DNA from: Eledone cirrhosa
Taxonomy: Eukaryota
Assembly: GCA_964016885.1 (NCBI GenBank)
Contig: OZ024741.1
Coordinates: 77,190,001-77,254,000 of the forward strand
Direction of reading: 5' to 3'
DNA: 64,000 nt
In this document: piece after piece, positions 7,036 through 40,963 of the stretch
Numbering within the stretch: position 1 is the stretch's first letter
Layout: each line of letters begins with the position of its first letter
The notes under the pieces: generated by a model
The model's input: only the letters and a program-made list of their open reading frames with translations
Database searches by the model: none
Told to the model about the DNA's origin: nothing
Program-made: the position numbers and the translations under genes

Positions 7036-7111
7036 CTTTTTGTTGTTTTTTTAAATTGTTATTATCATGAGTGGTTCCTTAATGTGAGCATTGCGTGGCT
7101 TAAGAATGAAA

Positions 7112-7170
7112 TTATTAATAATTGTCTCCACTCCAGGCACAAGGCCAGCAATCACCCAGTGCATTGCAAT
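7112..7170 (-). mobile_element. SINE 3' tail fragment (same family as 46261-46458)
   Basis: The stretch aattgtctccactccaggcacaaggccagcaatcacccagtgcatt matches the tail of the SINE at 46275-46322. Confidence 0.7.
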
Positions 7171-8009: not shown

Positions 8010-8132
<123 letters not shown>

Positions 8133-14217: not shown

Positions 14218-14232
14218 ACGTCGGGGTCACCA
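14218..14232 (-). promoter_or_regulatory. Primer binding site complementary to the tRNA-Trp 3' end
   Basis: TGGTGACCCCGACGT lies one base downstream of the 5' LTR on the minus strand and matches the canonical tRNA-Trp PBS. Confidence 0.88.
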
Positions 14233-14233
14233 C

Positions 14234-14785: not shown

Positions 14786-14813
14786 TCTATATATATTTAT
14801 ATATATATATGTG

Positions 14814-15745: not shown

Positions 15746-16073
15746 CGATAGAATTAATTAATAATTATTAATAATGTTATATCGTGCAATGGCCATACTC
15801 GATAACGAGGGGTCAGCCATTATGTATGTATGTATTTACTTACTTATCTCAGTATCAACATGTATAAGTTTTTTTTTTCATGGCTGGGCTTCGCAAAGGA
15901 AGATTATGAAGGTGGTGGTACACGTTGACTGCAGGCACGCTCGTGGAATGTCCTAGAAGCTCGGAAAATGTTTGTGCATATTGACGACTAACATTCACAT
16001 AAAGAGGAGTCCGAATAAAACTTTGTTCTCTCCAATAAAATGCTCTCAGATGCATTTATATCTATCTATCTAT

Positions 16074-19000
16074 AGGAAAGTGTTCCTGCCTTTTCTCTCC
16101 CTAACTCTTCTTCACCAACATGGCGACTATACAAGTTGGATGTTTGAATATACGTTCCTGGGCATGCCCTGGAAACAGGGCCAGCTTTTAAATGATCTCA
16201 GGTCACATTGTATAGATGTGATAGCCATCACCGAGTCCAGGATTCACGACAAGCAGCAGCTAACCCCCATGTTCGATGGCTTTGAGATCTACGCATCTCT
16301 CTGTCAGCCAGGAGGAGGAGGGGGAGTTGCTGTTCTGTTGCGAAAAAACTTGGATCTCAAAGCACAAACGATTCACTTGGACCCGGAGGGCAGCTTGGTG
16401 GTCCTGGACGTGAATGGTAGTGAAGGTGGAGCTTTCAGACTGGTGGCGGCATATGCTCCGACCGAGTTCTTCAAGCGTCTGGAGCCATTCCTGGGAACGT
16501 CTCGCTCCTTAGTGTTAGCGGGGGACTGGAATGGTATCTTAGATGCACGTTGGGACTATGTAGGAGCTTGTGATAATAGAGGGGAGTATAATAGCCTAAA
16601 AAGTCTCATCAGCCAATTCCAACTGGCTGGTAGATATCGACTAGACTTCCCAAGTGTACCACTGTGGACGTGGAGCAACCGTACTGAGTCTTCTATATCG
16701 TATTTAGATAGATTTTTAATTAGACAGAATGATAAGGAAACATTAAGCAGTCCACAAATGCACATGGTTGCCTATTCAGACCACAAATTAGTCACCTGCG
16801 TAGTCAACCTTGATAGAACACATAGACAGGGACCCGGATACTGGAAGCTAAACATGTCGCTTCCGGCGCGTAAGGCCTACAGTAAACGGATTAGCACCTT
16901 AGTTAAGTGCCAGTTGACGGGGGCGATCGTCAACAACAGGTGGTGGAGCTCTCTCAAGAGAGCAATTAGAATAGAATCGATAGCATTTAGCAAGGAAGTA
17001 GCTTTAGAAAAAAACAAAACCGAAAAGGAACTGGTAGCTAAAGCAGAAGAGGCACTTAGGAATGGCAGTACAGCTGACGTGCTAGCCGCGATAACAGCAC
17101 TAGACCAGTTCTTCAACGTGAAACACGAAGGTTGTATTGTCAGAAGTAGAACACGTGCTCTAAGAAACGCAGGAGCCAAAGCTGTTAGCTGGGCCCGAGT
17201 GGCAGAGGTGAAAAGTGGCAAAAAATCCACAATTCGGTCCTTTCAAGACAAAGATTGGCGCATTCTACTTGAATCCAAGCAGATGCGCACGGCCTTCCAG
17301 CAGCATTTTGCACAATTGTTCGGGAAAAGCGGTACATCGTACGAGGTGATGGACTTCAGCTCCTACCTCGACGGCGTACCACGACTCTCGAGCACGGATG
17401 CGGAGAGCTGCGAAATGCTGATCACAGCGGGCGAAATAGAAGATGCCCTAGGCCGCTGTGGGAAACGCAAATCACCCGGTTTAGATGGTCTACCCTATGA
17501 GTTTTACATAGGCATACCAGACTTGTTCTCTGGTGTCCTCGAAGCGGTCTACTGCAACTGGCAGCAGAACGGGAGGATTCCCAGTTATGTAAGCAAAGGC
17601 GTAGTAACGCTGATCAGGAAAGATGAGAACAAGGGGGATGAGATAAGCGATTTCAGACCCATAAATCTGCTCAATACAGAGTTAAAGATTTTGGCCAAGG
17701 TGTTAGCAGCGAGGCTGGCGCTTGTCGTTGAGAACCTGGTAGGGGAAGCGCAAACTTGTGCAATCTCGACCAGGTCCATACACGAAAACCTCCACTCATG
17801 CGATACATCATAGAGAGGGGAGGGTGTAAACCTGGCTTCGGTGGGGCTCTGATCAATTTAGATCAGTCTAAGGCATTTGATAGAGTTGTCCATCAATACT
17901 TGGAAGCGGTTCTCAAGGCGGCCGGATTCGGTCCGGTCTTCAGAGGTTGGATCGCTGCCATGCACACCAGCATCTACTCGACAGCCAAGGTGAATGGCTA
18001 CCTATCGGAGCCATTCCAAATCATGCGTTCCATCCGTCGGGGGTGCCCTCTCTCCTCCATTCTGTATGTACTGGCTCTGGAGCCATTACTGCGGAAGTTG
18101 GAACTGTTGCAGGGCATCCCAATCGAACCAGGACTGCGGAAAGCAGCGTCGGCCTATGCCGACGACATAACGGTAATGGTGTCGAAAACCTCGGACATCG
18201 GGGTAATCGGCAACCTATTACAAGAATACGAAACGTTGACAGGAGCAAGACTAAACTCAAACAACTCTGTCGGTTTGCAACTTGGCACATAGAGAGGCAA
18301 ACCCATGCCTTCTGACAGTGTCGTTGGACGCTGGACTGAAGGACCGGTGAAATTGCTCGGGGTCTGGTTTGGTCCAGACCTCCAGGTGGACAAGAACTGG
18401 AACGAGGTCACGGCGAAGGTGTTTGCACTCACCCAGAAGTGGGCTGAGTGCAAACTCTCCTTGAAAGGTCGAGCGGAGGTGGCGAACACTTACATAGCGT
18501 CCGTCATCTACTACCGCTTGACAGTTGTGCCTTGTCCCCGCGAATACCTCACCAAAATGGAACGCCTACTCTTCAAGAAACAGGCTCCATTGGTGAAACA
18601 GGCTCCATTGGTGAAACAGGCTCCATTGGTGAGGAGATCCATCTGCTGTCAACACCCTTCTAACGGAGGGCTGGGCATGCCGTGGCTGATGATGCGCAAA
18701 CATGCGCTGAGGCTACGCCATCTCCAGGTGCTCCTGACCGGCGAACCGGTGTGGCTCTCGTTTGTGAGACGAGCTCTTCCACAACTCGTCTCACTAACAG
18801 AGCTGCAGTCCTGGGTCAAGCGAAGACCGAAAATGGGCGCCTGGCACCTCGAGTGCGTTCAGGCGCTTACAGCCCTCTACCAAGCGGAAACGGCAATCAA
18901 CGGAGACTCTACTTCGACATTCTATAGGGGATTAGTGGAGGATAAGTGCGACGACGTTCTCGAGGAAACTCTAGGCATCGAGGAAACGAACTGACCAGTC

Positions 19001-19790
19001 TGTTCGGGAGGACTTTCCGTCCAGGGCCTATGGATAACTTCCAGAGGTCTCTGGCCTGGCAGTGCTACCGAGGAGCTCTACCAGTTAGAGACAAAATCTA
19101 CAGGCACGGACGCCCTGGCAGAGATCCTGCCAAAAGGACCTGTCCAAGATGCGAGCAGGACATCGAAACCATTTTTCTCAATTGTTCAGTGTCCAGGGGT
19201 TCAGTGACTTGTGGAATTATGTCGAACAGCTACTGTCACGTGTAGGACGCATCCAGTTGTCAGCCGAATCCATCGTGAGGATCACCCCGCCGCCTTTATT
19301 TAAGAATGAAGGAGAGGCGGTCTTCCTCTGTCTGGTGGCTATGGCGAAAGAGGTAATATGGTGGACGAGGTTAAAGGGACCGAGGGCAAGCACCTTTCTC
19401 TCCGGACAACAACTCATCTCCTTCTTTAAGTACACTTCAGAAGGAAGGTGAGAGTGGAGAGAGAGGTGCTACACCCCAGTAAATTAGCTGAAAGGTGGGT
19501 GAATGGGCCTTCTCTGTTTATAAACCTGTAGGTTGAGGAAGATAAACAAAGGGAAGACGGGAACACCTACAAAACGTGTTCCTGGGGTTGAGGGTTGTTC
19601 TATCCACCAGGTGTAAAACAACCCCGCAGTAGCGTTACCACCCCACCCCCCTAATGGGGTTTCAATTGTTTTATTTTTATATTGTTTATTGTTATTTATC
19701 ACTGTTAAAGATTTTATGTAAAACCCCCGCCGTCACGTCTTGTAATGTTCCATTTTTGTACGCCCCTGTGGAAAATAAAGAAAGAATCTA
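16074..19790 (+). mobile_element. L1/Tx1-clade retrotransposon copy 1 (5'-truncated at the ORF1/ORF2 spacer)
   Basis: Starts right after (TATC)3 and ends AATAAAGAAAGA followed by TCTATCTA. It carries a degenerate ORF2. Confidence 0.9.
16120..19531 (+). pseudogene. ORF2 (APE endonuclease, RT, zinc finger), with several stops and frameshifts
   Basis: Motifs GDWNGILD, SYLDRFL, YSDHKLV, GPGYWKLN, KSPGLDGL, FRPINLLN, LDQSKAFDRV, GCPLS, AYADD and CPRC. An in-frame 18-bp triplication (KQAPLV x3) lies at 18578-18631. Confidence 0.9.
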
Positions 19791-19797
19791 TCTATAT

Positions 19798-19880
19798 TAA
19801 TGTTATATGATTTTTATGTAAAACCCCCGCTGTCACGTCTTGTAATGTCCCATTTGTGTACGGCCTTGTGGCAAATAAAG
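19798..19880 (+). mobile_element. Tx1-family 3'-terminal mini insertion (about 83 bp)
   Basis: Diverged second copy of the last ~85 nt of copy 1, ending AATAAAGA and followed by (TATC)n. Confidence 0.75.
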
Positions 19881-19881
19881 A

Positions 19882-19976
<95 letters not shown>

Positions 19977-19977
19977 A
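19881..19977. repeat. (TATC)n/(GATA)n microsatellite, about 24 units
   Basis: Read directly from the sequence. Confidence 0.97.
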
Positions 19978-20212
19978 TTGGAATCTAGCTGTCGTCTGTT
20001 CTACAGCGTAGATGTAATTCACTTCGCGCAGAAGTTTTGTTCAAATTTATTGCGGAAATTTTGTAAGTTCAAATTTAATTTTGATACTATTGTGTAGCTT
20101 GACCCCCCGTCTGAACTGTCAGGAGGTGGGTCAGCTCATCGTTACCCCTCCTAGGGGTGAAAAACCTGTTTTTAAAAATTTTGTGGCAAAAAATTTCAAT
20201 CGTCTGACAGAA

Positions 20213-22123
20213 ATGTTAAACGAAGCGAACGAAAATAGTGGTGGGGGGACAGCGGTAAGAGTTGTAAGCTCGCACGCTTTAGTCCCCTCTTCCTTCCCAA
20301 CTAACGTCATAGAGAAGGAAGGAAGAAATAAAATAAAAACAGACGAATCTGCGGAGAAAAATGACGAAAACACAAATCTGGACATGGATTCCAACAACGA
20401 AATAAAAAAAATTTGAAAAATTGCATGACAATATTAATACCACAAACAAAGACACAACAAACACAAAAATAACATTTGAAAACAACATCATAACAGAAAG
20501 CAAAGCAGACGACAAAGTCAATACCAACAAGATTTCATTTGCACAAACAACAAAGAAATCTTTGACATATATACCTGAAAATATTTCAGATGTGGCACAA
20601 AGAATCACAGACGCCAAACAATACATAAGTGAAGGAGAGAATGGTATTTTATCGGTAAAAATGCCTCAAGAACTCACCAAAGACATTGAAAGTCGAACGG
20701 TCGTGTTCCGCACCATCAACAACACTTCTAAAAAACCTGAACAGCCTTCTCAAACAGATATCAAAACAGTACTCACAGAAGTACTGAATGAAACCACTTT
20801 CATAAGAAAAGACAGACTGTATGGAAGCCTAGCAATTATTATGAAGAACGAATCGGCGGCAAAAAAATGTGCTTTGTCACCGATTCGTTCAAAATTGTTT
20901 ACCTTTTATCCATCTTATATGGGTAAAAGAACTCAACGCATATGGCTGGATGCAATGATGCCAGATGTGGACTACTGCTGGCTCATAGCTGGCTTCATCG
21001 ATCCAGTGAATGACAACGTGATTTCCATTGGGAAAACCACAGGCAATGCGTTCAGTGGAACAGGTATAGAGCTTGTAGTGCAAATGAAGCCTGAACGTAT
21101 CACCCAAATACCCGACAGAATCCTATTAGAGGGCCACGGGTATATAAACATTAGCGTGGAGGGGAGAAGGCCGTCCTGTCATATCTGTGCAGGAAGAGGG
21201 CACCTGAAGGCCGCTTGTCCCCAACTCAACAAAAAGAAAACCCTGCTACCAACACCAGCTCCACCACCACCACCACAACAGATGAACAAACAACAAAACT
21301 CAGTCCCACCCAACCCGTCCCTCAGTAAAACTACACCACCACCACAACACAAACAGTCACAACACATTACCCCAAAACAAAATACAGGCCCACCCAACCC
21401 CTCACTCAATAAAACAACACAACCACCGCAGCCACAACACACAACACAGTCTAACATAGTGACATCCATCTCCTCCACAAAGAAAACCAACACAGAAACA
21501 TTACCAGCAAACATACCTCTTCCCTCCAACACTGAAGATAACCCAACGAATTCGGAGGAAGAAACGGAGTCCTTCAGACAGATTAAAAGGAAAAAAGAAA
21601 ACATGTGCAAAACACACAAGGCCAAACAACTCCCACCCAAATGTCAACACAATCCAACAAAACACAAAACACTCCTCCAGCAACAAACAAAACCAAACCT
21701 GCCCCTCCCCTCTTCGAAACACTCACACCATCCGAAAAAAAGACATTACACTATACTTACATCAACAGAAACAATAATAAATTAAATGAACTGATAAACA
21801 ATAATCCTTCGGTACAAACCGAAGGTGTAAACTTTGTTTCTTCAGAAAACTACCCACATTTAAAATTAATAAAGATCCCAATGAACCTCTACCAAAAACT
21901 AAAAAAGGATTTTAAGGAGGACGTAGGACCACCCTCTGTCAAACCCATAAACCGCGTCCTACTAAAAAGCTTTCCCCCTCCCCTTCCCCTCCCCAACACA
22001 ACTCCAAACACCCCAACCCCACCACACACTGACGACCCCACACCACCACAAGACACCCCTTCACCCAACACCCCCGACCCCATGGAAGTCGTGCGACCCG
22101 AACCCCGGGAAGCAGAAAGGTAG
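20213..22123 (+). CDS. ORF1 protein (Asn/Thr-rich N-terminus, CCHC zinc knuckle, Pro/Thr-rich tail), frameshifted at A-runs
   Basis: Knuckle VEGRRPSCHICAGRGHLKAAC. Pieces 20213-20416, 20421-21785 and 21605-22123 are collinear with ORF1 of copies 3 and 4. Confidence 0.8.
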
Positions 22124-22156
22124 GTCTCTACACTCTCCTTTGGCTCTGCCGCCCAC

Positions 22157-25100
22157 ATGGATGTGTTAAGAGTAGGATGTTTGAATGCACGTGGCCTGGG
22201 CTCAACTTGGAAGCAAGCAAAGCTTCTAAATGACCTCAGGTCATGTGGTATAAATGTAATGGTTATCTGTGAGACTCGGATCAGCGTCGTGCGGCAGCTG
22301 GCCCCTACCTTCGATGACTTTGAGGTGCATGCATCTCTCTGTCAACCTGGAGGTGAGGGTGGGGTTGTCGTACTGCTGCAAAAACACCTGGGTCTTGCCG
22401 TACAGGTTGTGCACTCGAACCCGGAGGGTCGTTTGTTGGTGCTAGACGTTGGCAGTAGTGAAGGTGCGGCCTTGAGACTGGTCGCCGTCTACTCCCCTTT
22501 CGGAGCTGAACGGCCCGACTTCTTCCAGCGTTTGGAGACTTTTCTGGGAACGTCGCGTTCCCTGCTTCTAGCGGGGGATTGGAATGACATCCTAGATGCA
22601 CGTTGGGACTATGCAGGAGCATGTCCTAATAGAGGGGGGTGTAACAGCCTCAAGGGGTTACTCGACCGTTTTAACTTGGTCGATAGATATCGACTAGATT
22701 TTCCAACTGTGCCTACCTGGACTTGGAGAAACCACAGTGGTCAATCTAGATCGTACTTAGATAGATTCTTAGTTAGAAGTAAGGATAGGGACATATTAAG
22801 CTGTCCAGAAATGCGCACGGTTGGCTATACGGATCACAAATTAGTGACCTGCGTAGTCAATCTCGAGAAAACACACAAACAGGGTCCCGGTTACTGGAAA
22901 CTTAATTTGTCTTTACCGGCAAAAGAGACTTACAGAAACCGGATTAGCAGATTAGTTAAGGAGAGGTTGACGGGTGCAATCGTCAACAACCGATGGTGGG
23001 CATCTCTCAAAAGAGAGATTAGAACAGAATCAATAAGTTATAGCAAGATATTAGCTGCCGATAGGAATAGAAACGAGAAAGAATTAACAGGTAAATTAGA
23101 AGAGGCAATCAAGAGCGAAGATGTGGCCAGAGTGCTGGCATCGAGGACGGCCTTGAACCAGTTTTTCGATGCAAAGCACGAAGGCTGCGTCATTCGAAGT
23201 AAAATACGTGCTCTAGGTAATGAGGGGGCCAAAGCCGTTGGCTGGGCCCGCGTGACAGAAGCTAAGAGTGGAAATCGATCCACCATCCGGTCGTTGCAAG
23301 ACGAGGATGGTCGGGTGATCCGGGAGCCTAAGCAGATGTGCGAGGCCTTTCAAAGGCACTTTGCCCGATTATTCGGGGGAGGCGAGGGTCCGGGCGGGGA
23401 CGTGGATTTCGGTCCATACCACGACGGCCTGCCGCGTCTCTCGAGCGAAGAGGCAGAGTCCAATCTCGGCTGATGAGATCGGAGATGCGCTGAGCCAATG
23501 CAGCAGACGCAAATCTCCAGGTCTCGATGGTATACCTTACGAACTTTATTTAGCAATGCCGGTCTTCTTCTCCGAACTCCTCGAAGCGGTCTACTGCAAT
23601 TGGCAGCAGAACGGGAGAATTCCTTGTTCTGTAGCCAAGGGCGTAGTCTCGCTGGTGAGGAAGGACGAGAACAAGGGGGATAGTATAAATAATTTTCGGC
23701 CCATAACCCTGCTAAACACAGAGGTAAAGATTTTGGCCAAGGTGTTAGCAAAGAGGTTGGCGCTTGTCGTGGGTGGCCTGGTGGGAGATGCGCAGACATG
23801 TGCTATCCCATCCAGATCCATTCACGATAACCTCCACCTCATGCGATACATCATAGAGAGGGTTGGCAACAAACCCGACTTCGGTGGGGCCCTGATCAAC
23901 TTGGATCAGTCTAAGGCCTTCGATAGGGTCGACCATGGTTACCTGGATGCGGTGCTAGCGGCGGCTGGGTTCGGTCCTGTTTTCAGAGGCTGGATCACTG
24001 CCTTACATAGCAACCACATCTGTTCTAGGATCAAGGTGAACGGCTACCTTTCGAAGCCGTTCGAAATCACACGATCCATTCGACAGGGGTGCCCTCTCTC
24101 CTCCCTTCTGTACGTATTGACTCTCGAGCCTTTACTGAGGAAGTTAGAGTTGTTGCAGGGTATCCCCCTGGAACCAGGATTGAGCAAAGCGGTGTCGGCC
24201 TACGCCGATGACGTAACAGTAATGGTATCGACCGACTCGGAAATCGAGGCGATCGGTACCTTACTGGAGGATTACGAAAGGTTGTCAGGAGCGAAACTGA
24301 ACCGGGAAAAATCCATCGGGCTGCAACTCGGAACGTGGAGAGGCAGACCGATGCCTCCCGACGGTGTCGTCGGACACTGGACGGAGGGCCCGGTAAAGTT
24401 GCTTGGGGTCTGGTTTAGACTGGACCTCCAGGTGGAAAAGAACTGGGACGAGGTTACGAACAAGGTGTTTGCACTAACCCAGAAATGGGCCAAGTGTAAG
24501 CTGTCCCTAAAAGGCCGGGCGGAGGTGGCGAACATTTACATAGCGTCCGTCACTTACTACCGCCTGACTGTCGTGCCTTGCCCTAAGGAAACACTCACCA
24601 CCATGGAACGCATGCTCTTCCAATTTCTTTGGAAGAAGCTCCCTCTTATGGTGAGAAGATCCATCTGCTGCCAACAACCTTCGAAAGGAGGGCTGGGGAT
24701 GCCGTGGTTGATGATGCGAAGGCACGCATTAAGGCTACGGCACCTACAGGTATTCCTCACTGGTCAACCGGTGTGGGCTCCGTTCGTGAAACGAGCCTTT
24801 CCGAGACTCGTCTCGCTCACCGAGCTGCAGTCCTGGGTCAAGCAAAGATCCGGAAAACTGGGAGACTGGCACACTGAGTGTGCTCAGGCGCTCAGGGCTC
24901 TCTGGCAAGCGGGCCAGGCCATCGGTGGAGAATCCACCTCATCATTCTATAGAGGGCTGGTGGCTAGCAGGGGCGATGACACCCTTGGAGAGTCGCTGGA
25001 CATGGAAGAGGACGAACTGGCCAGCCTGTTCGGTAGGACTTTCGGCCCGGGACCAATGGACAACTTCCAGAAGTCACTAGCCTGGCAGTGCTACCGGGGG

Positions 25101-25583
25101 GCTCTACCCGTTCGAGAGAGGCTCTACAGACACGGGCGCCCGGGCAGGGATCCCTCAAAAAAGATTTGCCCTAGATGCGTGCGTCACGAAGAAACCATTG
25201 CGCACGCATTGGTGCAATGTCCGGGCGTGGCTGATCTGTGGGGCTACGCCGAACGACTGCTGTCGCGGGTGGCGCCGATTCAATTGACCGCCGAGTCCGT
25301 GATGACAATCAAACCGCCTCCCCTCTTCACAAAGGAAGCAAAGGCGGTTTTTCTGTGCGTAATAGCCATGTTGAAAGAGGTTGTTTGGTGGACACGATTG
25401 AAAGGTCTGAGGTCAGGCAACTTCCTCTCTGGCCATAGTCTGGTCTACTTCTTCCGATATCACTTCGGAAGAAGGATAAGAATGGAGAGAGAGGTGCTTG
25501 GCCACAGGCAGTTTTATGAAAGGTGGGTGACAGTGGCGAGAATGGCTCGTGTAAATGGGCCTTCTCTGTATACCATCCTGTAG
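22157..25583 (+). CDS. ORF2 APE-RT-zinc finger protein, one frameshift near 23460
   Basis: Motifs CLNARGL, CETR, GDWN, YTDHK, YWKLN, KSPGLDG, FRPITLLN, QGCPLS, YADD and CPRC..ETIAHALVQC. Confidence 0.9.
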
Positions 25584-25799
25584 GTAAAGAAGTGAAGGAG
25601 AGGGGAGCACCTTCTGCATGTGCTCCCCGGGCAAAGGATTGCACACTTTTTCGGGGGTGTGTGCAACCCCCATCACGTCCCCTCCCTTTTGAGGTTATTT
25701 TCGATTATTTTCATTTTATACCCTTTTTACTCGATTGCATGTAAACTCCCCCTTTGTATTTGTCCCTTCTTTTTATGCCTTTATGGTAAATAAAGAAAT

Positions 25800-25800
25800 A

Positions 25801-25880
<80 letters not shown>
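25800..25880. repeat. (TATC)n microsatellite, about 20 units, between Tx1 copies 2 and 3
   Basis: Read directly from the sequence. Confidence 0.97.
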
Positions 25881-26097
25881 AGACGTGTGTAACTTCGCGG
25901 AGAAGTTTCCGTTAATTTATGTCAGAAAAAAACGTGAGTTTTTAGTTAAATTTTATATCATTGTGTAACTTGACCCCCCGTCTGAACCTTCAGGTGGTGG
26001 GTCAACTCATTTTCGCCCCTACAGGGGCGGAATATCCATTTGAAAATTTTTTCTCCATCGAATCTTGGAAAAAATATTGTAAAATTTCGATTACGTT

Positions 26098-27945
26098 ATG
26101 AACGCTGCGTCCAACGATAATGGTGGTGGAGAGGCGGTAAGACTACAAAGCTCGCAGTCAACGTCTTCTTCACTAGATACTATAGAGATGGAAAGACGAA
26201 ATGAAAATGTAAAAACGAATTCAAATTCAAACAACACAAATGACACCAAACAGTTCAATGACAACAAAAATAACAGCAACACCAATAATGATGATAAAAG
26301 CAACAATGATAACAACAACAAAGAAAAAAATAAAGACAACACCAATAATACCAGCATCAAAGACAACAACAACACCAAGGAAAATACGAACAATACCAAC
26401 ATCGGTGACAACAAGAATAACAACAAGAATAACAACAATAATGACAACACCAACAACACGGATTCCACAAAGAAACCAAAAATCTCCTTTGCAGAGAAAG
26501 TTAAAAAAAAGGAAGAATTGATATATCTCGACATAACAAATGCTGAACAACTTTTAAAGGACGCTAGGAGATATGTCAGTTTCGAAAAAAAATGGTGCTT
26601 TCAGCATCAATTCTCCGGTAGAAATTCGCATGGAAACTGCTCTCAAAACGATAGTTTTTAGGACAGTTTCCAATTCTACCCGAAAACCAGTCCAATTGTC
26701 ACAGAAAGAAATTGACTGGTTTTCAAAAATTCAATGAATGATATTGCATTCATTCAAAGAAGCAAACTTTTTGGGAGTATTTCGGTACTCATGAAGGATA
26801 AATTGACGGCCCAAAATTACTCTGTGTCGCCAATTGTATCCAACCTGTACACCTTTTTCCCTACATACATGGGAAAAAGGACACAAAAGATCAGAATCAC
26901 GAGTATCACACCAAAGGTGAACATATGGTGCGGCTTCATCAATTTTGATGAAGACAGAATACTGTCAGTAGGCAAGTCCCCCAGAGATGTATTCAATGGG
27001 ACTAGCATTGAAGTTCTGGTGCAAATGAGCCCAGAGCGAATAGCTATGATCCCACAACGTGTACTCCTGGACGGACTCACCTACATAAACTCTTCGGTTG
27101 AGGGTAGGCGGCCTTCATGTTACCATTGCTTTAGCAGGGGTCACCTGAGGGCTTCCTGTCCTAAATTAATGAATAAAAAAAAGGCTCTTCTGCCGACACC
27201 CATCAAAACAACACAACCACCAACACCACCACAACAACAACACCAACACACAAAAATAACCACAACAAACACAGTCCCACCCAACCCCACTCCACCTAAA
27301 ACCACTGCAAAATCACATACAGACACAACAGCTCCCCAAGACATACCCCTCCCCAATCACACAGACGATACAACAGATGAGGCTATCTCGCCATCACCCA
27401 GTGAAGACGAGGGAGAACCCCATCGCTCGAAAAGAAAGAAAAGACATCACAAAAGCAAAAAAACAGTAAACACTACCACAAACATACAACCACCAACACA
27501 AACAACAAAAACATCACAAACAAAACCCCCACCTCCTGAAAACAAAATACCTACAACAAAACGAAAGCACACACAAGAACTACAGACAAAAACAAACACA
27601 ACACAAGAAAATTACACTTACACTTACATAAACACTGAAAACAAAACACTAATGGAGACCATCACGAACGACCCTTCGGTTTTCACCGAAGGGAAAACTT
27701 TCGCCCACTCTATTAAAAATAGCAAAAAACTGAACCTAAAACTGATTAGGGTCCCTATACAAACTTATAGGTCCCTAAAAGAAACATTTGAGAAGGATGT
27801 GGGGAATTCCTGCGTGAAACCACTCAACAGCGTCCTTCTCAAATGTCTCCCCACCCCAGACACCCCCATCCCACCAGACCCCACCCCACCAAACATCTCC
27901 GTCCCCACCCCGCCGGAAACCACCACCCATCCAGACAACCCCTCC
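26098..27945 (+). pseudogene. ORF1 of copy 3 (frameshifted, C-terminus deleted)
   Basis: Asn-rich N-terminus, KISFAEKV, and knuckle CYHCFSRGHLRASC. Confidence 0.8.
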
Positions 27946-27949
27946 AACA

Positions 27950-30900
27950 GTTGCCGTTTTGCTGCGGAAACACCTGGGCCTCGTAACACAGACGGTACAT
28001 CTGGACCCGGAGGGTCGACTGGTGGTCCTAGACGTTGACGGTAGTGAAGGTGGAGCCTTCAGGCTGGTGGCCGCATATGCCCCATCCGGGACACCGCGGC
28101 CAGACTTCTTCAAACGTCTAGAGACTTTTCTGGGAACGTCCCGCTCCTTGCTTTTAGTGGGGGACTGGAATGGATTCCTAGATGCACGTTGGGACTATGT
28201 GGGAGCATGTCCCGATAAAGGGGGGTGTAACAGCCTCAAACAGTTAATCGACTGATTTGACTTGGCCGATAGATATCGACTAGATTTTCCGACTGCGCCA
28301 CTGTGGACGTGGAGTAATCGTAGCGGAACATCTAGATCGTACCTAGATAGGGTTCTAGTTAGAAATAAGGATAGGGACATGTTAAGCTGTCCACAAATGT
28401 TCATGGTTGCCTATTCAGATCACAAACTAGTGACCTGCATGGCCAACCTTGATAGAACCCATAGACAAGGACCCGGCTACTGGAAGCTGAACTTGTCGTT
28501 ACCGACAAGCAAAGCCTACAGTAGACGGATTAGCACTTTAGTTAAACAGCACTTGACAGGGGCCATTGTCAACAAAAGATGGTGGTACTCTCTCAAGAGG
28601 GCAGTTAGATTAGACTCGATAGTTTTTAGTAAAGAATTAGCTTTAGATAGAAATAGAACCGAGAAGGAACTGGTAGATAAAGTAGAAGAGGCAATTAGAA
28701 GTGGCAACGTAGCCAGCGTGCTAGCAACGAGAACGGCCTTGGACCAGTTCTTCGACGCAAAGCACGAGGGCTGCGTTGTCAGAAGCAAAATACGTGCTCT
28801 GGGAAACTGGGAAACGAGGGAGCCAAAGCTGTTAGCTGGGCCCGAGTGACGGAGGCAAAAAGTGGCAACAAGTCCACGATTCGGTCTTTGAAGGACCAAA
28901 ACGGACGCGTGATACGTGAGCCGAAGCAGATGTGTGCGGCTTTTCAGCGGCACTTTGCTCGGCTGTTCGGGGGGCGGGGGGCGGGAGAGGCTATGGATTT
29001 CGGTCCATACCTCGACGGCCTACCGCGACTCTCGGACAGCGAAGCAAAGTTCTGCGAAAAGCCGATTTCAGCCACTGAGATAGAGAATGCGCTGAGCCAA
29101 TGCGGCAAACGCAAATCTCCAGGTCTCGACGGTCTACCCTACGAATTTTACGTAGCAATGCCGGACTTATTCTCCGGTCTCCTGGAAGCGGTCTACTGCA
29201 ACTGGCAACAGAACGGGAGAATTCCCAGTTCTGTAACCGGGGGTGTGGTCACACTAATCAGGAAGGACGAGAATAAGGGGGATGACATAGGCAACTTCCG
29301 GCCCATAACTCTGCTAAACACAGAGTTAAAGATTTTGGCCAAGGTGTTGGCAAAGAGGCTGGCGCTTGTCGTCGAGAACCTGGTGGGAGAAGCGCAGACA
29401 TGCGCAATCCCGACCAGGTCCATACACGACAACCTCCACCTCATGTGATACATCATAGAGAGGGTAGGGTGTAAACTCGGCTTCGGTGGGGCCCTGATCA
29501 ACGTGGATCAGTCTAAGGCTTTCGATAGGGTTGACCATCGTTACCTGGATGCGGTGCTCGAGGCGGCAGGCTTCGGACCCGTGTTCAGGGGCTGGATTGC
29601 TGCAATGCACAACAGCAACATCTGCTCAAGGGTCAAGGTGAACGGCTACCTCTCGGAGCCGTTCCGTATTACGCGATCCATTCGACAGGGATGCCCTCTC
29701 TCCTCCCTTCTGTACGTACTGACTCTCGAGCCACTACTGCGGAAGCTGGAGCTATTGCAGGGCATCCCTCTGGAACCGGGACTGCGGAAAGCGGCGTCGG
29801 CCTACGCCGACGACGTGACAGTAATGGTGTCGAGCGCCTCGCAAATCGAGGAAGTCGGCACCTTACTGAAGGAATACGAAAGTCTCACAGGAGCGAAGCT
29901 GAACCGGGACAAGTCCATCGGTTTGCAACTCGGATCGTGGAGAGGCAAACCGATGCCTTCCGATGGCGTCGTCGGACGCTGGACGGAAGGACCGGTAAAG
30001 CTGCTCGGGGTCTGGTTTGGTCCGGACCTCCAGGTGGAGAAGAACTGGAACGAAGTCACGGCCAAGGTGTTTGCACTCACCCAGAAGTGGGCCGAGTGCA
30101 AACTATCTTTGAAAGGTCGAGCGGAGGTGGCGAACACTTTTATAGCGTCCGCCATCTACTACCGCTTGACCGTCGTGCCTTGTCCAGCCAAAACGCTCGC
30201 CAAAATGGAGCGCGCGCTCTTCCGATTCCTTTGGAAGAGGCGGGCTCCTTTGGTGAGAAGATCCATCTGCTGCCAACACCATTCTAATGGAGGGCTGGGG
30301 ATGCCGTGGTTGACGATGCGCAAACACGCGCTCAGGCTGCGGCATCTCTACGTATTCCTCACCGGACAACCGGTGTGGGCCCCGTTCGTGAGGCGAGCCT
30401 TCCCACGACTCGTCTCGCTGACCGAACTGCAGTCCTGGGTCAAGCAAAGACCGAGGAAAATGGGCGACTGGCACATCGAATTTGCTCAGGCGCTCACAGC
30501 CCTCTGGCAGGCGGACCCGACGATCAGTGGAGACTCCACTTCGTCATTCTATAGAGGGTTGGTCCGCAGCAAGTGCGACGACGCGCTCGGTGAAACTCTA
30601 GGCGTAGAGGAAGATGAACTGGCCAGTCTGTTCGGTAGGACCTTCCGCCCGGGACCGATGGACAACTTCCAAAAGTCCCTGGGCTGGCAGTGCTACCGAG
30701 GAGCTCTACCAGTTCGAGACAAGCTCTACATACATGTGTCGCCCGGGCAGGGACCCTGCAAAAAAGACCTGTCCGAGGTGCGTGCGAGACGAAGAAACCG
30801 TCGCGCACGCATTCATACAGTGCCCGGGCGTCACTGACCTGTGGGGCTATGTAGAACGACTATTGTCGCGGGTGGGACCAATCCGGTTGACCACCGAGTC

Positions 30901-31185
30901 CATTGTCATGATCAAACCGCCACCCTCCTTCAAAACGAAGGAGAGGTGGTTTTCCTTTGTGTGATAGCTATGGCGAAAGAGGTTGTATGGTGGACAAGGT
31001 TGAAAGGGCTGAGGTCAGACACCTTTCTCTCCGGCCAACAACTGATTCTTTTTTTCAAATACCACTTTGGAAGAAGAACCAGGATGGAGAGAGAGGTGCT
31101 GTACCCCAGCAAGTTTTATGAAAGGTGGGTGAAAGTGGCGAGAATGGCCCGAGTGAATGGGCCTTCTCTCTATATCAGCCTGTAG
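27950..31185 (+). pseudogene. ORF2 of copy 3 (N-terminal ~68 codons missing, stops and frameshifts)
   Basis: Resumes at VAVLLRKHLG. APE, RT (YADD) and zinc-finger motifs match copies 2 and 4. Stops near 28253 and 29446. Confidence 0.88.
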
Positions 31186-31446
31186 GTTGAGGAAAAGGAG
31201 GAGGAGAGGAAGGGAGTACAAACTCTTCGTACTCCTGGAGATGAGGGTTGCACATTTTTTCGGGGGTATGTGTTACCCATATAAACTGTCTCCATCTATT
31301 GGGGAAAATCGACTAACTTTTTAAATTCCATTTGTGATAACATTTTACACGTTTTTATTGTATGTAAACTTCCCCCTTTGTATTTGTCCCCTTCTTTTGT
31401 GCCCCTGTAGCTAATAAAGAAATCTATCTATCTATCTATCTATCTA

Positions 31447-31706
31447 CCTTCTCTGTTTATAAGCCTGTAGGTTAAAGAAGAGAGAAAAAGGAAGAAAGGG
31501 GCACTTGCACAACACGCTCCTGAAGTTGAGGGTTGTTCTATCGATGGGGTATTAAACAACCCATTTGTGGCGCCTCCCCCCTATTTGGGGATTTCGATTG
31601 TTATATTTGTTTGTTTCATATTTTTACACGAATGTATGTAAAATCCCCGGCATGTGTCTTTGTTTTGTCCCCTTTTCTTGTGTGTCCTTGTGGCTAATAA
31701 ATAAAT
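31447..31706 (+). mobile_element. Tx1-family 5'-truncated insertion (last ORF2 codons plus 3'UTR)
   Basis: Runs from ccttctctgtttataagcctgtag to gctaataaataaa and is of the copy-1 subtype. It is bounded by (TCTA)6 on the left and tatctatctgtct on the right. Confidence 0.85.
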
Positions 31707-32343
31707 ATATCTATCTGTCTTTCTTTCTATAAAAGAATTTGTAGTTATCACACAGTCTCTCACACACACACACATAATTATTCGTCAAGCATGCCATGTT
31801 ATGGCATTTTTTCGGAAAGATGAGCTGAACCAGGTTGTAGTTCTCTCTGGTGCCGTATTTTTGTTGTTTGTTGTGGATAGGTTGTATGATATTCAAAAAT
31901 TCAATAACATATAACTCATCCCTTATAACCACATCCCCTCTTTCGCATGAGAAAGATAAATATGTTGTGATTCAATATGCCATCTAGAAACTATTTCTTT
32001 CATTCATCAACAACCTTTGGCAACAAAAAATTCATAAGTGATTCAATTCAACAGAAGCAACATGAAAGCCAGTTGTTGTACAACTCTAGGATAAAAGAGA
32101 ATACAAAGGCGGCGGAAAATTTCTGAATTTGGGCAAATTTAGTCAATTTAATTGTAGTGATTAGCTTAGCTCTTTGCACTCCAAAATGGTCAGAAAACTT
32201 CGATATCCGATAAACATAACATGTACATATATTGAAGCGCATATCCAAATAGATGTGTGTTTTGGTAGTTTGGGGAGAAAAACATAATTATTGGTGGGAG
32301 GGAGCATGGACACCTACCCCCTCTCCCAGTTTCACCACCCCTG

Positions 32344-33962: not shown

Positions 33963-34261
33963 CAGGGGCGTGCAACAGGCGGTCCGCCAGACCAGTCAGA
34001 GTGGCCCGCGATGACGGTTTTTGATTTTTACCTTGTAGGCTTATTTAGAATCTTTTTCGTAACCGTAATACAATTTTCTGTTAGTTGACCTATACGAAAG
34101 GGCTTCACTGATAGGGTAATGTGTGTTATAATTTCCCAGTTCCATGCTATGGAAAGAAGTTGTGGTGAATCTTTGGAATAGTGCTTAATAAATATTAATG
34201 GCCCTATAATTGTTCCAATGTTCAAAAGTGGCCCACCAATGGAATATGTTGCACATCCTTG
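33963..34261. mobile_element. hAT (Charlie/Buster-type) MITE, 299 bp
   Basis: TIRs CAGGGGCGTGCAAC / GTTGCACATCCTTG and an 8-bp TSD CTCTAAAG / CTCTAAGG with central TA. Confidence 0.8.
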
Positions 34262-34309
34262 CTCTAAGGTTTCACTTGTACACTCATACAATCACCAGTC
34301 TTGTATGAT

Positions 34310-35106
34310 GATCCACCTTACTCCCCTCCTCTCTATGTCTGTCACACAAAACTCTCTTTTAATCCCCCTCTCTTTATCTACTAAAACCAATCTCTCCCTC
34401 TCTATATATCTACTACGACACCACCTCTCTATAACTAACACAAATACACTCACCCCTCTCTATAAATATATACACTTATCTCTCCCAATCCCCCTCTCTA
34501 TATCAATCACCCTTAAACTCTCCCCCTCTCTATATCTACAATACGGCACTCTCTCATTATCCCTCTGCCTATATCTACAATCATGAAATTCTTCCCCTCT
34601 CTATATCTAACATGCAAATCACTCTCCCAATCACCCTCTTTATATTAATCATCTACAAACACTCCCCCTCACCATCTCTACCACGCTCTCTCATTATCGT
34701 TCTCTGTATCCATCACAAATTCCCCCTCTATATCTTTTGCGACAATGTCTCACCAGGCCACCTCTATATATTTAACAATATTTATCTCTCCCAACCCCCT
34801 CATTATATCTACAAGCATTGAAATCATCCCCTCTCTATATCTACTACACGACATACTCTCTCTCTTCCAATGCCCCTCTCTATATCAATAAACATCAATA
34901 TCTCCCTCGCTATATATCTACTATACAACACTCTATTTCATTCCTTCTCACTCTATCAATCACTACCAAACTCTCCCCCTCTATACATCAACCATACAAC
35001 ACTCTCCACCAACCCCCCTCTCTATATCAATTATAACCAAACTCTCCCTCTCTCTATATCTACTTTACGAACTCTCTTCCAATACCCTCTCTATATCAAT
35101 TACCAC
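34310..35106. repeat. Degenerate pyrimidine-rich satellite related to the 30/31-bp array
   Basis: Recurrent ctctctatatc(a/t)a...aaactc units. Confidence 0.8.
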
Positions 35107-35304
35107 TTGATATAGACGTGATTCACTTTGCTCCGGATTCTTACGGATTGTTGTAAAAAAAAAACTGTGAGTTTATTGATCAATTTAATAACATTGTTTG
35201 GTTTAGCCCCTTGCCTTGGCCGTCAGACGTTAAGTCAACAAACTTTCGCCCCTTTCTGGGGCGAAATTTTCAATTTTCATCTAAAAACTGTAGACTTGGT
35301 AGCA

Positions 35305-37080
35305 ATGGATGCCATTTCCACCTCGCACACTGTCGTGAGTGCCACGCCCACTAAGAAAAGTGGTGGAGGGAAGGTAGGAGTGCAAAGCTTGCAGCCGTCC
35401 CCCTCGCATCATCGAAAAACGTGGAAAATATCGAAACCGCGAAACCAAATCCGGCAAATAATACCAGCACCAACAACAAGAACAATGACAACAACACCAC
35501 AACCAACAACTGCAACAATAGCAACACCAATATTACCAACAGTGACAGTAATACGAAAGACAACAACAACAAAACAACATTTGCACAGACCGTAAAAAAA
35601 AAAAGAACTATACACGCCAATAGACATAACAAATGCTAAACAACTATTACAAGACGCAAAACAATTCGTGACTTTTGGCGAAAACGGTGCTTTTAGCATT
35701 AATTCTCCACAGGAATTACGTAGAGAGGCTGTCCTGAAAACCACAGTTTTCAGGACAATATCGAACGTAACAAGAAAACCAGCTCAATTATCACAAAATG
35801 AAATTGAGATGGTTCTAAAAGACGCAATGAAGGACTTAACCTTCATACAAAAAGGTAAACTGTTTGGTAGCATTTCGGTGCTGATGAACAACCAGTCAAC
35901 AGCTCAAAAGTACTCGATAGCACCCATTGTGTCCCCCCACTTCACCTTTTACCCCACATACAGGGGAAAAAGGACACAAAGAATAAAAATAATGAGTATC
36001 ACACCAAATGTAAACATTTGGTGGATACTATGTGGAATAATAAACTTTGACGAAGACAAGATAATTTCAATAGGAAAGTCCTCCGGAGGTGTATTTGGTG
36101 GGACCACAGTAGAAGTTCTGGTGCAAATGAGCCCAGAACGAATAGCGAATATCCCACAACGCGTGTCTCTGGACGGGCTAACTTATATAAACATTTCAGT
36201 GGAGGGAAGGCGGCCGTCATGTTTCCACTGCTTAAGCAGGGGTCACCTGAGGGCTGCCTGTCCTCAATTAACGAGTAAAAAAAAAAAGGCTCTTCTGCCA
36301 ACCCCGAACACAACAACACAACCACAACCACCACCACCGCCACCACAACAACAACACGGAAAAATAACAACACAAAACACTGTTCCACCCAACCCCTCCC
36401 CACCTAAAACAAATACAAAAGCAACCACAACAAAACCCCAAAATATACCCCTCCCCAACAACACGGAAGAGGACTCCGTATCAACGTCACCCAGTGACGA
36501 CGAGGGAGAACCCTTTCAACAGGTGAAAAGAAAAAAAAAAGGCACCACATTAACAAAAATGCCACAAACACACAGCCACCAGCACAAACATCACAAACAT
36601 CACAAATAAAAAACCCACCTCTCCCCAAAACATAACACGTACTATAAAACGCAAACACCCGCAAGAACAATAAACAAAAACAAACACAACACAACAAAAA
36701 CTCTATACATACATTAACAAGAACAATAAAACGTTGATGAAAGCGATATAAAATAACCCTTCGGTGGAAACCGAAGGGATCACTTTCACCTACGCAGCGA
36801 ACAAACCGCACCTAATGATTATTAGGGTCCCAACGGAAACCTATGTAACTTTGAAAAAGAACCATCCAATGCATGTGGGGACCAACTGCACCAAACCACA
36901 TAACAGCGTCCTATTGAGATGTTTCCCCACCCCCACACCAGACACCCACACCCCACCAAACACCCTAATCCCACCACACACTGATGTCCTCACCCCACCA
37001 CAAACCACCACCCCATAAACAACCCTTCCAACACCCCCATGGAAATTGTGCAGCCTGGCCCCCAGGAGACGTAGAGGTAA
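35305..37080 (+). pseudogene. ORF1 of copy 4 (frameshifts and stops)
   Basis: TTFAQTV, knuckle CFHCLSRGHLRAAC and a Pro/Thr-rich tail. Confidence 0.8.
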
Positions 37081-37122
37081 GTAATTTCCTTTCCTCTTCC
37101 TTTTTACCTCTTCAGCACCAAC

Positions 37123-40100
37123 ATGGCCAATATAAGAGTTGGATGTGTGAATGCACGCGGCTTGGGGATGTCCTGGAAACAGGGCAAACTCTTAAATGAC
37201 CTCAGGTCGCACAGAGTGGATGTAATGGTTATTTGCGAGTCCAGGATCAGCAGCGAGCGCCAACTGGCCCCCATTTTCGACGACTTTGAGATCTACGCAT
37301 CTCTCTGTCAGCCGAGGGGTGGGGGTGGGGTTGTCGTTCTGCTGCGAAAATACCTGGGTCTTGCCACACAGAAGGTACACCTGGACCCGGAGGGTCGACT
37401 GGTGGTTTTAGACGTCGGCAGTGGTGAAGGTGGAGCTTTCAGGCTGGTGGCAGCGTATGCCCCATCGGGGACACCGCGACCGGACTTCTTCCGACGCCTG
37501 GAGAATTTCCTGGGAACGTCCCGCTCCTTGCTTTTAGTGGGGGACTGGAATGGTATCCTGGATGCACGTTGGGACTATGTAGGGGCATGTCCCGATAGAG
37601 GGGGGTGTAACAGCCTCAAACGATTAATCGGCCGATTTGATCTGGCCGATAGATATCGACTGGATTTTCCGACTGTGCCACGGTGGACGTGGAGTAATCG
37701 CAGTGGAACATCCAGGTCGTACCTAGATAGGTTCCTAGTTAGAAATAAGGATAGGGACATATTAAGCTGTCCACGAATGTTCATGGTTGACTATTCGGAT
37801 CACAAGTTGGTGACCGGAGTGGTCAACCTTGATAGAACTCATAGACAGGGACCCGGTTACTGGAAGCTGAACTTGTCTTTTCGACAAACAAAGCTTACAG
37901 TAAGCGGTTTAGCACACTAGTTAAGCAGCGTTTGACGGGGGCAATTGTCAACAACAGGTGGTGGGGCTCTCTCAAGAGAGAAATTAGAATAGAATCGATA
38001 GGTTTTAGTCGGGAATTAGCATCAGATAGGAATAGAACTGAAAGGGAATTAACAAATAGAGTAGAAGAGGCGATTAGGAGTGGCAACGTGGCCGGCGTGC
38101 TGGCGTCAAGAACGGCTCTAGACCAGTTCTTTGATGCGAAGCACGAGGGCTGCGTTGTCAGGAGTAAAATACGTGCTCTGGGTAACGAGGGAGCCAAAGC
38201 TGTTAGCTGGGCCCGAGTGACAGAGGCAAAAAGTGGCAACAAGTCCACGATTCGGTCTTTGAAGGACCAGGATGGACGCGTGATCCTTGAACCTGAGCGG
38301 ATGAGCGCGGCCTTTCAACGGCGCTTTGCACGACTGTTCGGGAGGGGCGGCGGGCCGGCTGGGGCCATGGATTTCGGTCCATACCTCGACGGTCTGGCGC
38401 GGCTCTCGGACGGGGAGGCGAAGTCCTGCGAGAGGCCGATTTCAGCCGCTGAAATAGGGGAAGCGCTGAGCCAATGCGGCAAACGCAAATCTCCGGGTGT
38501 CGATGGTCTACCATACGAACTTTATGTAGCGATGCCGGGCTTGTTCTCCGGTCTCCTCGAGGCGGTCTACTGTAACTGGCAACAGAACGGGAGAATTCCC
38601 AGTTCTGTGACCAAGGGCGTAGTCACGCTGGTGAGGAAGGAAGAGGACAAGGGGGATGACATAGATAACTTCAGGCCCATAACTCTGCTAAAGAGTTAAC
38701 TGAGTTAAAGATTTTGGCCAAGGTGTTAGCGAAGAGGTTGGCGCTTGTCGTCGGGAACCTGGTGGGAGAAGCGCAGACATGCGCAATCCCGTCCAGGTCC
38801 ATACACGACAACCTCCACCTCATGCGATACATCGTAGAGAGGGTAGGGAACGAACCCGGCTTTGGTGGGGCCCTGATCAACTTGGATCAATCTAAAGCGT
38901 TCGATAGGGTTGACCATCGGTACCTGGATGCGGTGCTCGCGGCGGCAGGCTTCGGACCCGTTTTCAGGGGCTGGATTGCTGCAATGCACAGCAGCAACAC
39001 CTGCTCGAGGGTCAAGGTGAACGGCTACCTCTCGGAGCCGTTCCAAATCACGCGATCCATTCGACAGGGATGCCCTCTCTCCTCCCTCCTGTATGTGCTG
39101 GCTCTCGAGCCACTACTGCGGAAGCTGGGGCTGTTGCAGGGCATCCCCTTGGAACCGGGATTGCGGAAAGCGGTGTCGGCCTACGCCGATGACGTGACAG
39201 TAATGGTGTCGTGCGCCTCGGAAATCGGGCAGATCGCCACCTTCCTGGAGGAATATGAAAGGTTCACAGGAGCCAAGCTGAACCGGGACAAGTCCGTCGG
39301 TTTGCAACTCGGGACGTGGAGGGGCAAAACGATGCCCTCCGACGGCATCGTCGGACGCTGGACGGAGGGACCGGTGAAGCTGCTCGGGGTCTGGTTCGGA
39401 CCGGACCTCCAGGTGGAGAAAAACTGGGACGAGGTAACGGGCAAGGTGTTTGCACTCGCCCAGAAGTGGGCCGAGTGCAAACTATCCCTGAAAGGTCGAG
39501 CGGAGGTGGCGAACGCTTATATAGCGTCCGTCATCTACTACCGCTTGACCGTCGTGCCTTGCCCAGAGAAAACACTCGCCAAAATGGAGCGCGCGCTCTT
39601 CCGATTTCTTTGGAAGAAGCGGGCTCCTTTGGTGAGAAGATCCACCTGCTGTCAACACCCTTCGAACGGAGGGCTGGGAATGCCGTGGCTGACGATGCGT
39701 AGACACGCATTAAGGCTACGGCACCTCCAGGTATTCCTCACCGGTCAGCCGGTGTGGGCCCTGTTTGTGAGGCGAGCCTTTCCGAGACTCGTCTCACTCA
39801 CAGAGCTGCAATCCTGGGTCAAGCAAAGACCGAGAAAAGTGGGCGACTGGCACATTGAATGTGCCCAGGCGCTCACGGCCCTCTGGCAAGCGGATCCGGC
39901 AATCAGTGGAGACTCAACCTCAACATTCTATAGAGGGTTGGTGCGCAGTAAGTGCGACGACGCTCTCGGAGAGGCTCTGGGCATGGAGGAAGACGAGCTG
40001 GCCAGTCTGTTCGGTAGGATGTTTGGCTCGGGACCGATGGACAACTTCCAAAAGTCCCTGGCTTGGCAATGTTACCGAGGAGCTCTACCCGTTCGGGACA

Positions 40101-40564
40101 AGCTCTACAGACACGGGCGCCCGGGTAGGGACCCCTCGAAGAAGATCTGTCCAAGATGCGTGCGGGACGAAGAAACCGTCGCACACGCATTCGTACACTG
40201 CCCGGGCGTTGCTGACCTGTGGGGCTATGTAGAACGACTACTGTCGCGGGTGGGACCAATCCGGTTGACCACTGAGAACATTGTCACAATCAAACCGCCT
40301 CCCCCTTTCAAAAACGAAGGGGAGGTGGTTTTCCTCTGTGTGATAGCCATGGCGAAAGAAGTTGTATGGTGGACAAGGTTGAAAGGGCTGAGGTCAGACA
40401 CCTTTCTCTCCGGCCAACAACTGATCTTTTTTTTCAAGTACCACTTTAGAAGAAGGATCAGAATGGAGAGAGAGGTGCTCTACCCCAGCAAGTTTTATGA
40501 AAGATGGGTGAAAGTAGCGAGAATGGCTCGAGTGAATGGGCCTTCTCTCTATATCAGCCTGTAG
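37123..40564 (+). CDS. ORF2 of copy 4 (APE-RT-zinc finger), frameshifts near 37880 and 38695
   Basis: Three collinear ORFs (37123-37920, 37932-38699, 38714-40564) together contain all APE and RT motifs. Confidence 0.9.
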
Positions 40565-40963
40565 GTGAGAGAGGAGAAGAATGAGAAGAGGAAGGAAGCA
40601 CCCGCTCTTTGTGCTCCTGAAGGGGAGGGTTGCACATTTTTTTGGGGGTGTGTGCGACCCATGTCAACGCCCCTCCCTATTGAGGACATCGATTGTTAAA
40701 TTTAATTTGTTATATGTTTTTTACACGTCTTTTTAAATGTATGTAAACTCCCCCCTTTGTATTTGTCCCAATCTTTGATGCCCTGGTGGCAAATAAATAG
40801 AAATATATATCAATTAGCACCAAACTCTCCCTCTCTCTATATCTACTACACGGAACGCTCTTCCAATACCCCTCTCTATATCTATTAACACCAAACTCTC
40901 CCCCCTCTCTATATCTACTACACGGAACTCCCCCCCCCCCACCTTTCTATATATATTACCACT

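Follow-up and report, generated by a model that had tools for sequence, protein, structure and literature searches.

Several long interspersed nuclear elements (LINEs) of the Tx1 group, which carry an apurinic/apyrimidinic-type endonuclease (APE), are specific for microsatellites: Kibi inserts into (TC)n, Koshi into (TTC)n and crocodilian Tx1 into (TTCC)n and (TTTC)n (PMC4494074, PMC3812793). In the accessible portions of this literature, the microsatellite targets reported are ACAY, AC, TC, TTC, TAA, TTCC, TTTC and TG, GATA not being among them, and the choice of microsatellites by APE retrotransposons is described as poorly understood (PMC3812793). A 64-kb stretch of the genome of the octopus Eledone cirrhosa (G000:C2:77190001-77254000; genome 3.0 Gb), referred to throughout as the window, holds six related Tx1-like LINE copies, A to F, five of them set head to tail between (TATC)n runs; copies of all their families were sought within the same genome.

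As far as the available descriptions go, these families resemble Kibi, Koshi and crocodilian Tx1 in being APE-type Tx1-like LINEs specific for a pyrimidine-rich microsatellite, and differ from them, in a comparison by description only, in the (TATC)n target with its minimal site C^TATCT, in the sharing of that target by at least four families and in the mollusc host; the set (TC)n, (TTC)n, (TTCC)n and (TTTC)n does not include this target. With Xenopus Tx1L (P14381; target Tx1D) and crocodilian Tx1-Mar (target Mariner-N4), as presented in the accessible text of PMC4494074, they share the architecture of open reading frame 2 (ORF2), and family F likewise lies inside another dispersed repeat; unlike in those elements, the site of F is a minisatellite unit, and full-length F starts with a constant hairpin leader and lacks a conventional duplication. 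SART1Bm, an R1-clade element of telomeric repeats, is comparable in the portions of PMC7265360 available in that it inserts strand-specifically into a tandem repeat, depends on upstream units and has a repeat-like RNA that may pair with the target, but it belongs to a different clade and ends in poly(A), which the octopus families show at 1/196 3' junctions. This near absence of poly(A) also sets them apart from mammalian-type L1, which is polyadenylated and inserts at T-rich sites. RTE-clade elements with microsatellite-like 3' tails, for which tail-target pairing is proposed in the accessible text of PMC6007223, similarly have a microsatellite at the 3' junction; in the octopus families the repeat is also found at the 5' side and in the duplication, and ORF2 is of L1/Tx1 type. 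The encoded-tail class of RTE, CR1 and L2 elements, with a repeat at the 3' end only and an unrelated 5' flank, does not describe them, TATC being present at both ends.

Insertion at TATC repeats across the genome

Copies A to E lie on the + strand at 16074-31707, with only TATC runs between neighbours (Table 1), just as a preliminary description of this DNA had reported; the 64-kb window contains four + strand runs of at least three TATC units, and all four are at junctions of these copies. The differing truncation points reported earlier were recovered as well, A starting just before ORF2, B and E being fragments of 87 and 261 bp, and C and D having intact 5' ends. The sixth copy, F (~35087-40805, + strand), does sit in a TATATC minisatellite, as had been noted, which is not a TATC-run target but the own target of family F. 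No poly(A) was found in any of the six copies (0/6), as the earlier account had stated for the five in the array. TATC follows the ends as described, whereas the uniform AATAAA..GAAA ending did not hold, five variants being present in the window (GAAAGA, AAAGA, GAAATA, GAAATC and TAAATA). The ~30 bp between TATC and the start of C, formerly read as flank, are C's own 5' end, common to 29/30 loci, and what was taken for one family comprises several, 70-87% identical.

The preliminary description proposed independent, strand-specific insertions into GATA repeats and a tabulation of the flanks and strand of all genomic copies as a check. The genome was queried with 3'-end sequences from all five families (C, D, A, F, E) and 5'-end sequences from three (C, D, F); each query gave 785-3204 candidates, of which the best 40 were scored, and whole copies were fetched. 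For C, 69 loci were obtained, 67 of them including the 3' end, with 60 unique junctions; the corresponding numbers are 49, 46 and 42 for D, 49, 49 and 33 for A, and 69, 67 and 61 for F. No more than 5 nt separate the 3' anchor from the start of TATCT at 52/60 unique junctions of C, 39/42 of D and 30/33 of A; for E, with 20 of 39 matches fetched, TATCT starts within 12 nt of the 3' end at 17/20. For comparison, in 20 arbitrary 10-kb stretches TATCT occurs at 0.00125 per position and 0.6% of positions have TATCTAT in the 40 nt before them, and an unrelated control LINE from the same window has TATCT at 0/20 of its 3' ends and TAA repeats after 19/20.

At the 5' side, TATCTAT is present in the 40 nt before the element at 29/29 loci of C and 27/29 of D, and the reverse motif at 0/58; of the copies with both ends, 38/44 in C, 28/31 in D and 16/24 in A have at least two TATC units in the 30 nt upstream. 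Twelve further C copies, chosen by protein match rather than by their ends, have TATC at the 3' side in 12/12 and at the 5' side in 11/12. In two restriction-site-associated DNA sequencing runs from another study, reads extending past the 3' junction (1369 and 1242) have (TATC)n as the consensus of their loose ends, and ~350 reads per run diverge earlier. Overall, 85-93% of 3' junctions are TATC in C, D, A and E and 84% are minisatellite in F, so that all five exceed the share by which the accessible text of PMC4494074 defines a target-specific Tx1 family, namely a single sequence type in >20% of flanks. The pattern named earlier as speaking against GATA targeting, TATC at the 3' side only with random 5' flanks, is not the one found: 5' TATC in the same orientation is accompanied by duplications holding unique bases, and the proposal of independent insertions stands.

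Informative target-site duplications, that is, those with enough non-repeat bases, were found in 24/100 copies with both ends, vs 7/2000 mismatched flank pairs; the count was made after removal of 37 F copies of full length, nine A copies that exceeded the reference in length and four rows with chaining errors. By family they number 18/41 (C), 2/30 (D), 1/24 (A) and 3/5 (truncated F), and they are 13-23 bp long (median 19, mode 20). Among 21 C, D and A sites, position -1 is C in 20/21 and positions +1 to +5 read TATCT in 19-21/21. Because duplications holding unique flanking bases start at C^TAT, the TATC repeat is the target and not a mere tail. Most sites have several upstream TATC units; no such unit precedes L010, L012, L063, L189 or L391/L392, of which the last is inserted antisense in ORF2 of a sister element, yet the cut is at C^TAT in every one of them. 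This reduces the minimal site to C^TATCT, or occasionally C^TATAT, a motif that TATC runs supply in bulk. One paralogue of the L151 site is present in the window (59263-59274), unfilled and with three TATC units; most of the remaining paralogues have (TA)n. In runs of at least 12 units the inferred nick falls within 5 units of the 3' end of the run in 17/29 cases vs 6.9 expected (p 0.015), a pattern equally expected if the upstream run lengthens once the element is in place.

Some individual sites deserve separate mention. The 3' junction of the E copy at L413 holds a 12-nt insertion that consists of the 3' end only and has a 15-bp duplication; another repeat, in two diverged copies, was hit at the identical TATCTGT position by one C and one D copy (L019 and L063); and at L418 the 3' flank of an E copy continues, by eye, into tRNA-like sequence.

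Endonuclease, RNA pairing and the target of family F

The observed pattern, then, is of insertions flanked on both sides by the target and set in one orientation, with duplications of ~13-23 bp that start from TAT after C, almost no poly(A), fixed family-specific 3' ends, and arrays. It is best read as the product of independent insertions of related Tx1-like LINE families at C^TATCT, mostly within (TATC)n and in one orientation, the site probably being chosen mainly by the elements' own APE endonuclease nicking the GATA strand; we give this reading a probability of about 0.72. Target-primed reverse transcription is established for APE LINEs. By analogy with it, the ORF2 endonuclease would nick the GATA strand at C^TATCT; reverse transcription would be primed at a fixed 3' end, 6-8 nt past AATAAA, probably aided by pairing of a few bases with read-through UAUC; and a second nick would follow on the other strand ~20 nt downstream. 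The end variant GAAATC is inherited in 12/12 of the youngest C copies, and the start point of reverse transcription is therefore fixed. In favour of the endonuclease, swaps of this domain alter the target in R1-clade elements, according to the portions of PMC7265360 available.

Family F adds a second target within the same clade. Its flanks match the minisatellite at 51/61 3' and 38/42 5' junctions, on a single strand throughout, vs 3/135 low-complexity matches in C, D and A and 8/1660 background windows. Truncated F copies have 15-18 bp duplications beginning C^TATAT. Full-length copies begin with a constant target-like leader (27/29 loci) that can form a 10-bp hairpin with the first core bases (35090-35116; z -4.67); their match to their own 3' flank is limited to a few bases shared with the leader, and a conventional duplication is lacking, which joining of the F 5' end via the target-like leader, as proposed here, would likely explain. 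The 5' leader of C (19982-20015) can also fold onto conserved first bases, more weakly than that of F (z -1.97). A dispersed 120-bp element follows the minisatellite at 17/29 F loci vs 0/87 others and lies in the window at 43411-43545 and 32219-32340; a homogeneous minisatellite of F-target type, with 67 copies of a 31-bp unit, occupies 41335-43415. By analogy with oyster Helentrons, as described in the accessible part of PMC7492417, the minisatellite may be an internal repeat of a non-autonomous element. Family F likely moved to C^TATATC within a minisatellite carried by a dispersed repeat. Parsimony, together with D and F being the closest pair in DNA (87%), weakly suggests that F is the derived family.

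Several points weigh against choice of the site mainly by the endonuclease, or narrow its basis. The best-known specificity loop of these enzymes is the betaB6-betaB5 hairpin (PMC1950540, accessible text), and this loop is identical in D and F despite their different targets, while the loop of C differs and its target is that of D; the loop was accordingly rejected as the cause of the F target switch. AATAAA lies only 6-8 nt from the end, so that the RNA probably continues into the target, and RNA-DNA pairing could select sites; the new recognition sequence earlier attributed to the endonuclease is accordingly only probable. Informative duplications are few in D and A, most copies being surrounded by pure repeat or too decayed. 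A true empty allele was not found, contigs of four runs at L163 giving no join that skips the element, and sampling was by closeness to the window copies, with 40 or 150 matches scored out of the 785-35,657 candidates of each search, which under-samples older or aberrant copies.

The strongest competing explanation assigns the endonuclease a loose preference for C^TAT, by which it would nick many sites; those resembling the flank of the donor copy would then be picked through base pairing of the DNA with the 3' tail of the read-through RNA and with the target-like leader at its 5' end. Although we consider it unlikely, it would account for the identical loop of D and F, for the C^TAT common to both targets, for the short distance from AATAAA to the end and for the F leader; tail-dependent site choice is also proposed for RTE elements in the accessible text of PMC6007223. 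Mismatches between duplication copies lean to TATC on the 3' side, 10 vs 5, but with p 0.30 and mis-registered rows included. Under such pairing the target would be inherited from the flank and F could have switched without protein change. The F endonuclease differs from that of D in 31/245 columns (C vs D, 65); against the pairing model, it has 17 private residues, six of them arginines, so that a protein change was available. Moreover, L189 was primed at the fixed end despite an available register with better pairing, and L258, the sole poly(A) copy, nevertheless hit TATC. On this less likely reading, the target might be partly written in RNA, with target-like sequence at both transcript ends, pairing selecting the site and a lineage switching target by one landing in a new flank with its loop unchanged.

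Arrays, families and other repeats of the window

Each insertion duplicates, and so regenerates, the target; later copies of any sister family can land alongside earlier ones, and head-to-tail arrays arise. Among 234 C, D and A flanks, a related element within 450 bp has the same direction in 75 cases and the opposite in 4, a few of these neighbours possibly being a mis-chained part of the copy itself. At L168, L185 and L326 the duplication takes in the first bases of the downstream sister copy, so that the events are ordered and the array grew stepwise. Growth by tandem duplication or unequal crossing-over instead of repeated insertion is very improbable: same-family C tandems do exist, the neighbours L154 and L155 are 98.0% identical, at the top of the range for 40 random pairs (95.3-98.05%), and copy B is possibly an old duplicate of the end of A, but the window array combines families 70-87% identical with different truncation points, and the spacers of C tandems are unlike one another, one containing an extra short 3' fragment. 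That TATC is an element-encoded tail of RTE/CR1/L2 type, combined with random insertion or accumulation in repeat-rich DNA, has almost nothing to commend it beyond the TATC after nearly all 3' ends and a D 5' flank that may be partly element-carried, its last few bases being common to many copies, since same-orientation TATC at the 5' side of C and of 5'-truncated copies with unique-base duplications refutes an encoded tail for C, and the unfilled paralogue with three TATC units and the control LINE stand against it too.

The same-family C tandems lie at G000:C1:168.10-168.12 Mb, C4:285.53-285.55 Mb and C2:144.36-144.37 Mb, three copies being spaced at 5.8-6.0 kb and four at 3.9 kb; the junctions of the first two tandems were read.

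Table 1. Array of Tx1-like LINE copies and the family F locus in the window
Feature	Position	Strand	Remarks
TATC run, target upstream of copy A	16059..16073	+	
Copy A	16074..19785	+	5'-truncated just before ORF2; decayed APE-RT ORF2 and 3' UTR; older family
Copy B	19795..19881	+	87-bp A-type 3' UTR fragment, 87% to A
(TATC)24 run, B-C spacer	19882..19976	+	
Copy C	19982..25800	+	full length; 5' end at 19982; youngest family
(TATC)20 run, C-D spacer	25801..25880	+	
Copy D	25881..31424	+	intact 5' end; ORFs decayed; ~290 bp deletion at 27949/27950
TATC run, D-E spacer	31425..31446	+	
Copy E	31447..31707	+	261-bp 3' fragment of a further family; then two TATC units
TATATC minisatellite, pyrimidine-rich, upstream part	34260..35086	+	family F target
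Family F target-like 5' leader	35087..35113	+	constant in 27/29 loci
Copy F core	35114..40805	+	full length; APE-RT-zf ORF2 broken; sister family, minisatellite target
Minisatellite resuming downstream of F	40806..40962	+	
RT, reverse transcriptase; zf, zinc domain; UTR, untranslated region.

Identities in DNA are 79% for C-D, 80% for C-F, 87% for D-F, 73-78% for A and the others, 87% for B-A and 70% for E-A, and on this measure of 70-87% the window copies represent separate families, A/B, C, D, E and F. None of these copies has its ORFs intact: ORF1 of C has a CCHC knuckle in a broken reading frame, its APE-RT-zf ORF2 is split over two frames (22124-23473 and 23319-25583), and D, compared with its other copies, has its deletion at the ORF1/ORF2 boundary. 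Intact copies elsewhere in the genome give an ORF2 of 1145 aa (from L164 for C and L303 for F) with APE (PF03372), RT (PF00078) and zf-RVT (PF13966) domains in the order of P14381, and an ORF1 of 604 aa with a CX2CX4HX4C knuckle, for which the atlas leads to CCHC clusters at 0.91 and Pfam gave no match above the cut-off. A separate ORF1 with a CCHC zinc knuckle is a feature of the Tx1 clade. Residues N10, E39, Y112, D141, N143, T189, D202, D226 and H227 of ORF2, which we take to be catalytic, are present in C, D and F in alignment with human L1 ORF2. ORF2 scores 336 bits against Xenopus Tx1 (30% identity across 910 aa of P14381) vs 170 bits against human L1, and its closest named protein is from Argonauta hians (62%), in keeping with an octopod host. 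Judged from its sequence, this architecture of APE, RT, C-terminal zinc domain and CCHC ORF1 fits a Tx1-clade LINE of the L1 group.

Families C, D, F and A form one clade (support 99) with weak internal order (D+F 49). A quick RT tree, which has a long-branch root and includes neither L1 nor named Tx1 subfamilies as references, groups the octopus families in a clade of their own with unnamed proteins of 40% identity. About 80 unnamed proteins (P0007-P0089; 37-47% identity) make up their sister group, and a metagenome scan with P0008, which sought the flanks of relatives ~40% identical, gave no match. Additional 5' ends downstream of TATC runs lead to ORF1s 31-70% identical to that of C at 9/10 loci checked, and the radiation therefore exceeds five families. 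Other genomic copies of family A are ~85-92% identical. Family C is very young, since ~89 of its best 150 endonuclease matches lie within an unbroken 1156-codon frame (manual count); for F the frame is open in 3 of the best 150. A C element is covered for the most part by contigs from two other organisms, and two Hi-C runs of a second species gave zero matching reads. An Rfam scan of window 15000-45000 gave no match, and a conserved 3' UTR fold, sought in four families, was unsupported (z -2.1 to +0.7).

The remainder of the window contains repeats of other kinds. On the minus strand of 1-11600 lie two LINEs of another type, with 3' ends adjoining (TAA)n at 986-1013 and 8010-8134. The second is followed by TAA repeats in 19/20 genomic copies and resembles Dong, listed on TAA in the accessible text of PMC3812793; the first, at 500-4620, has a period of ~2 kb (short repeats at 528, 2505 and 4583), which suggests internal tandem duplication. 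Within ~12100-14790 a stretch of several hundred bases is repeated ~2130 bp further on.

Novelty and significance of the GATA target

Surveys of coleoid genomes (PMC13282606, PMC8967140) count L1-Tx1 families, 13 of them recently active in Octopus vulgaris, and give no targets in their accessible portions; the word 'target' is absent from the main text of PMC13282606. The octopus families probably overlap the L1-Tx1 repeats annotated there. The accessible parts of PMC3747384 and PMC8869645 add nothing further on targets. A LINE targeting GATA/TATC was not found in the searchable literature, Repbase and the target lists in the figures and supplement of PMC4494074 lying outside that search, and we judge the chance that the target is already catalogued at about one in three. 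Since microsatellite-targeting Tx1 elements are known already, the GATA/TATC target is a new variant and not a new class of element.

The system supplies this new target together with dozens of natural copies with unbroken ORF2. GATA runs in the genome grow into LINE arrays of several families, which is relevant to assembly and to GATA microsatellite markers. The sister families D and F, with endonucleases that differ at 31 of 245 positions, a shared hairpin loop and different targets, make the question of endonuclease vs RNA directly testable by swaps; if RNA pairing does select the site, they would represent a natural, near-isogenic and heritable RNA-assisted switch of target in an APE retrotransposon.

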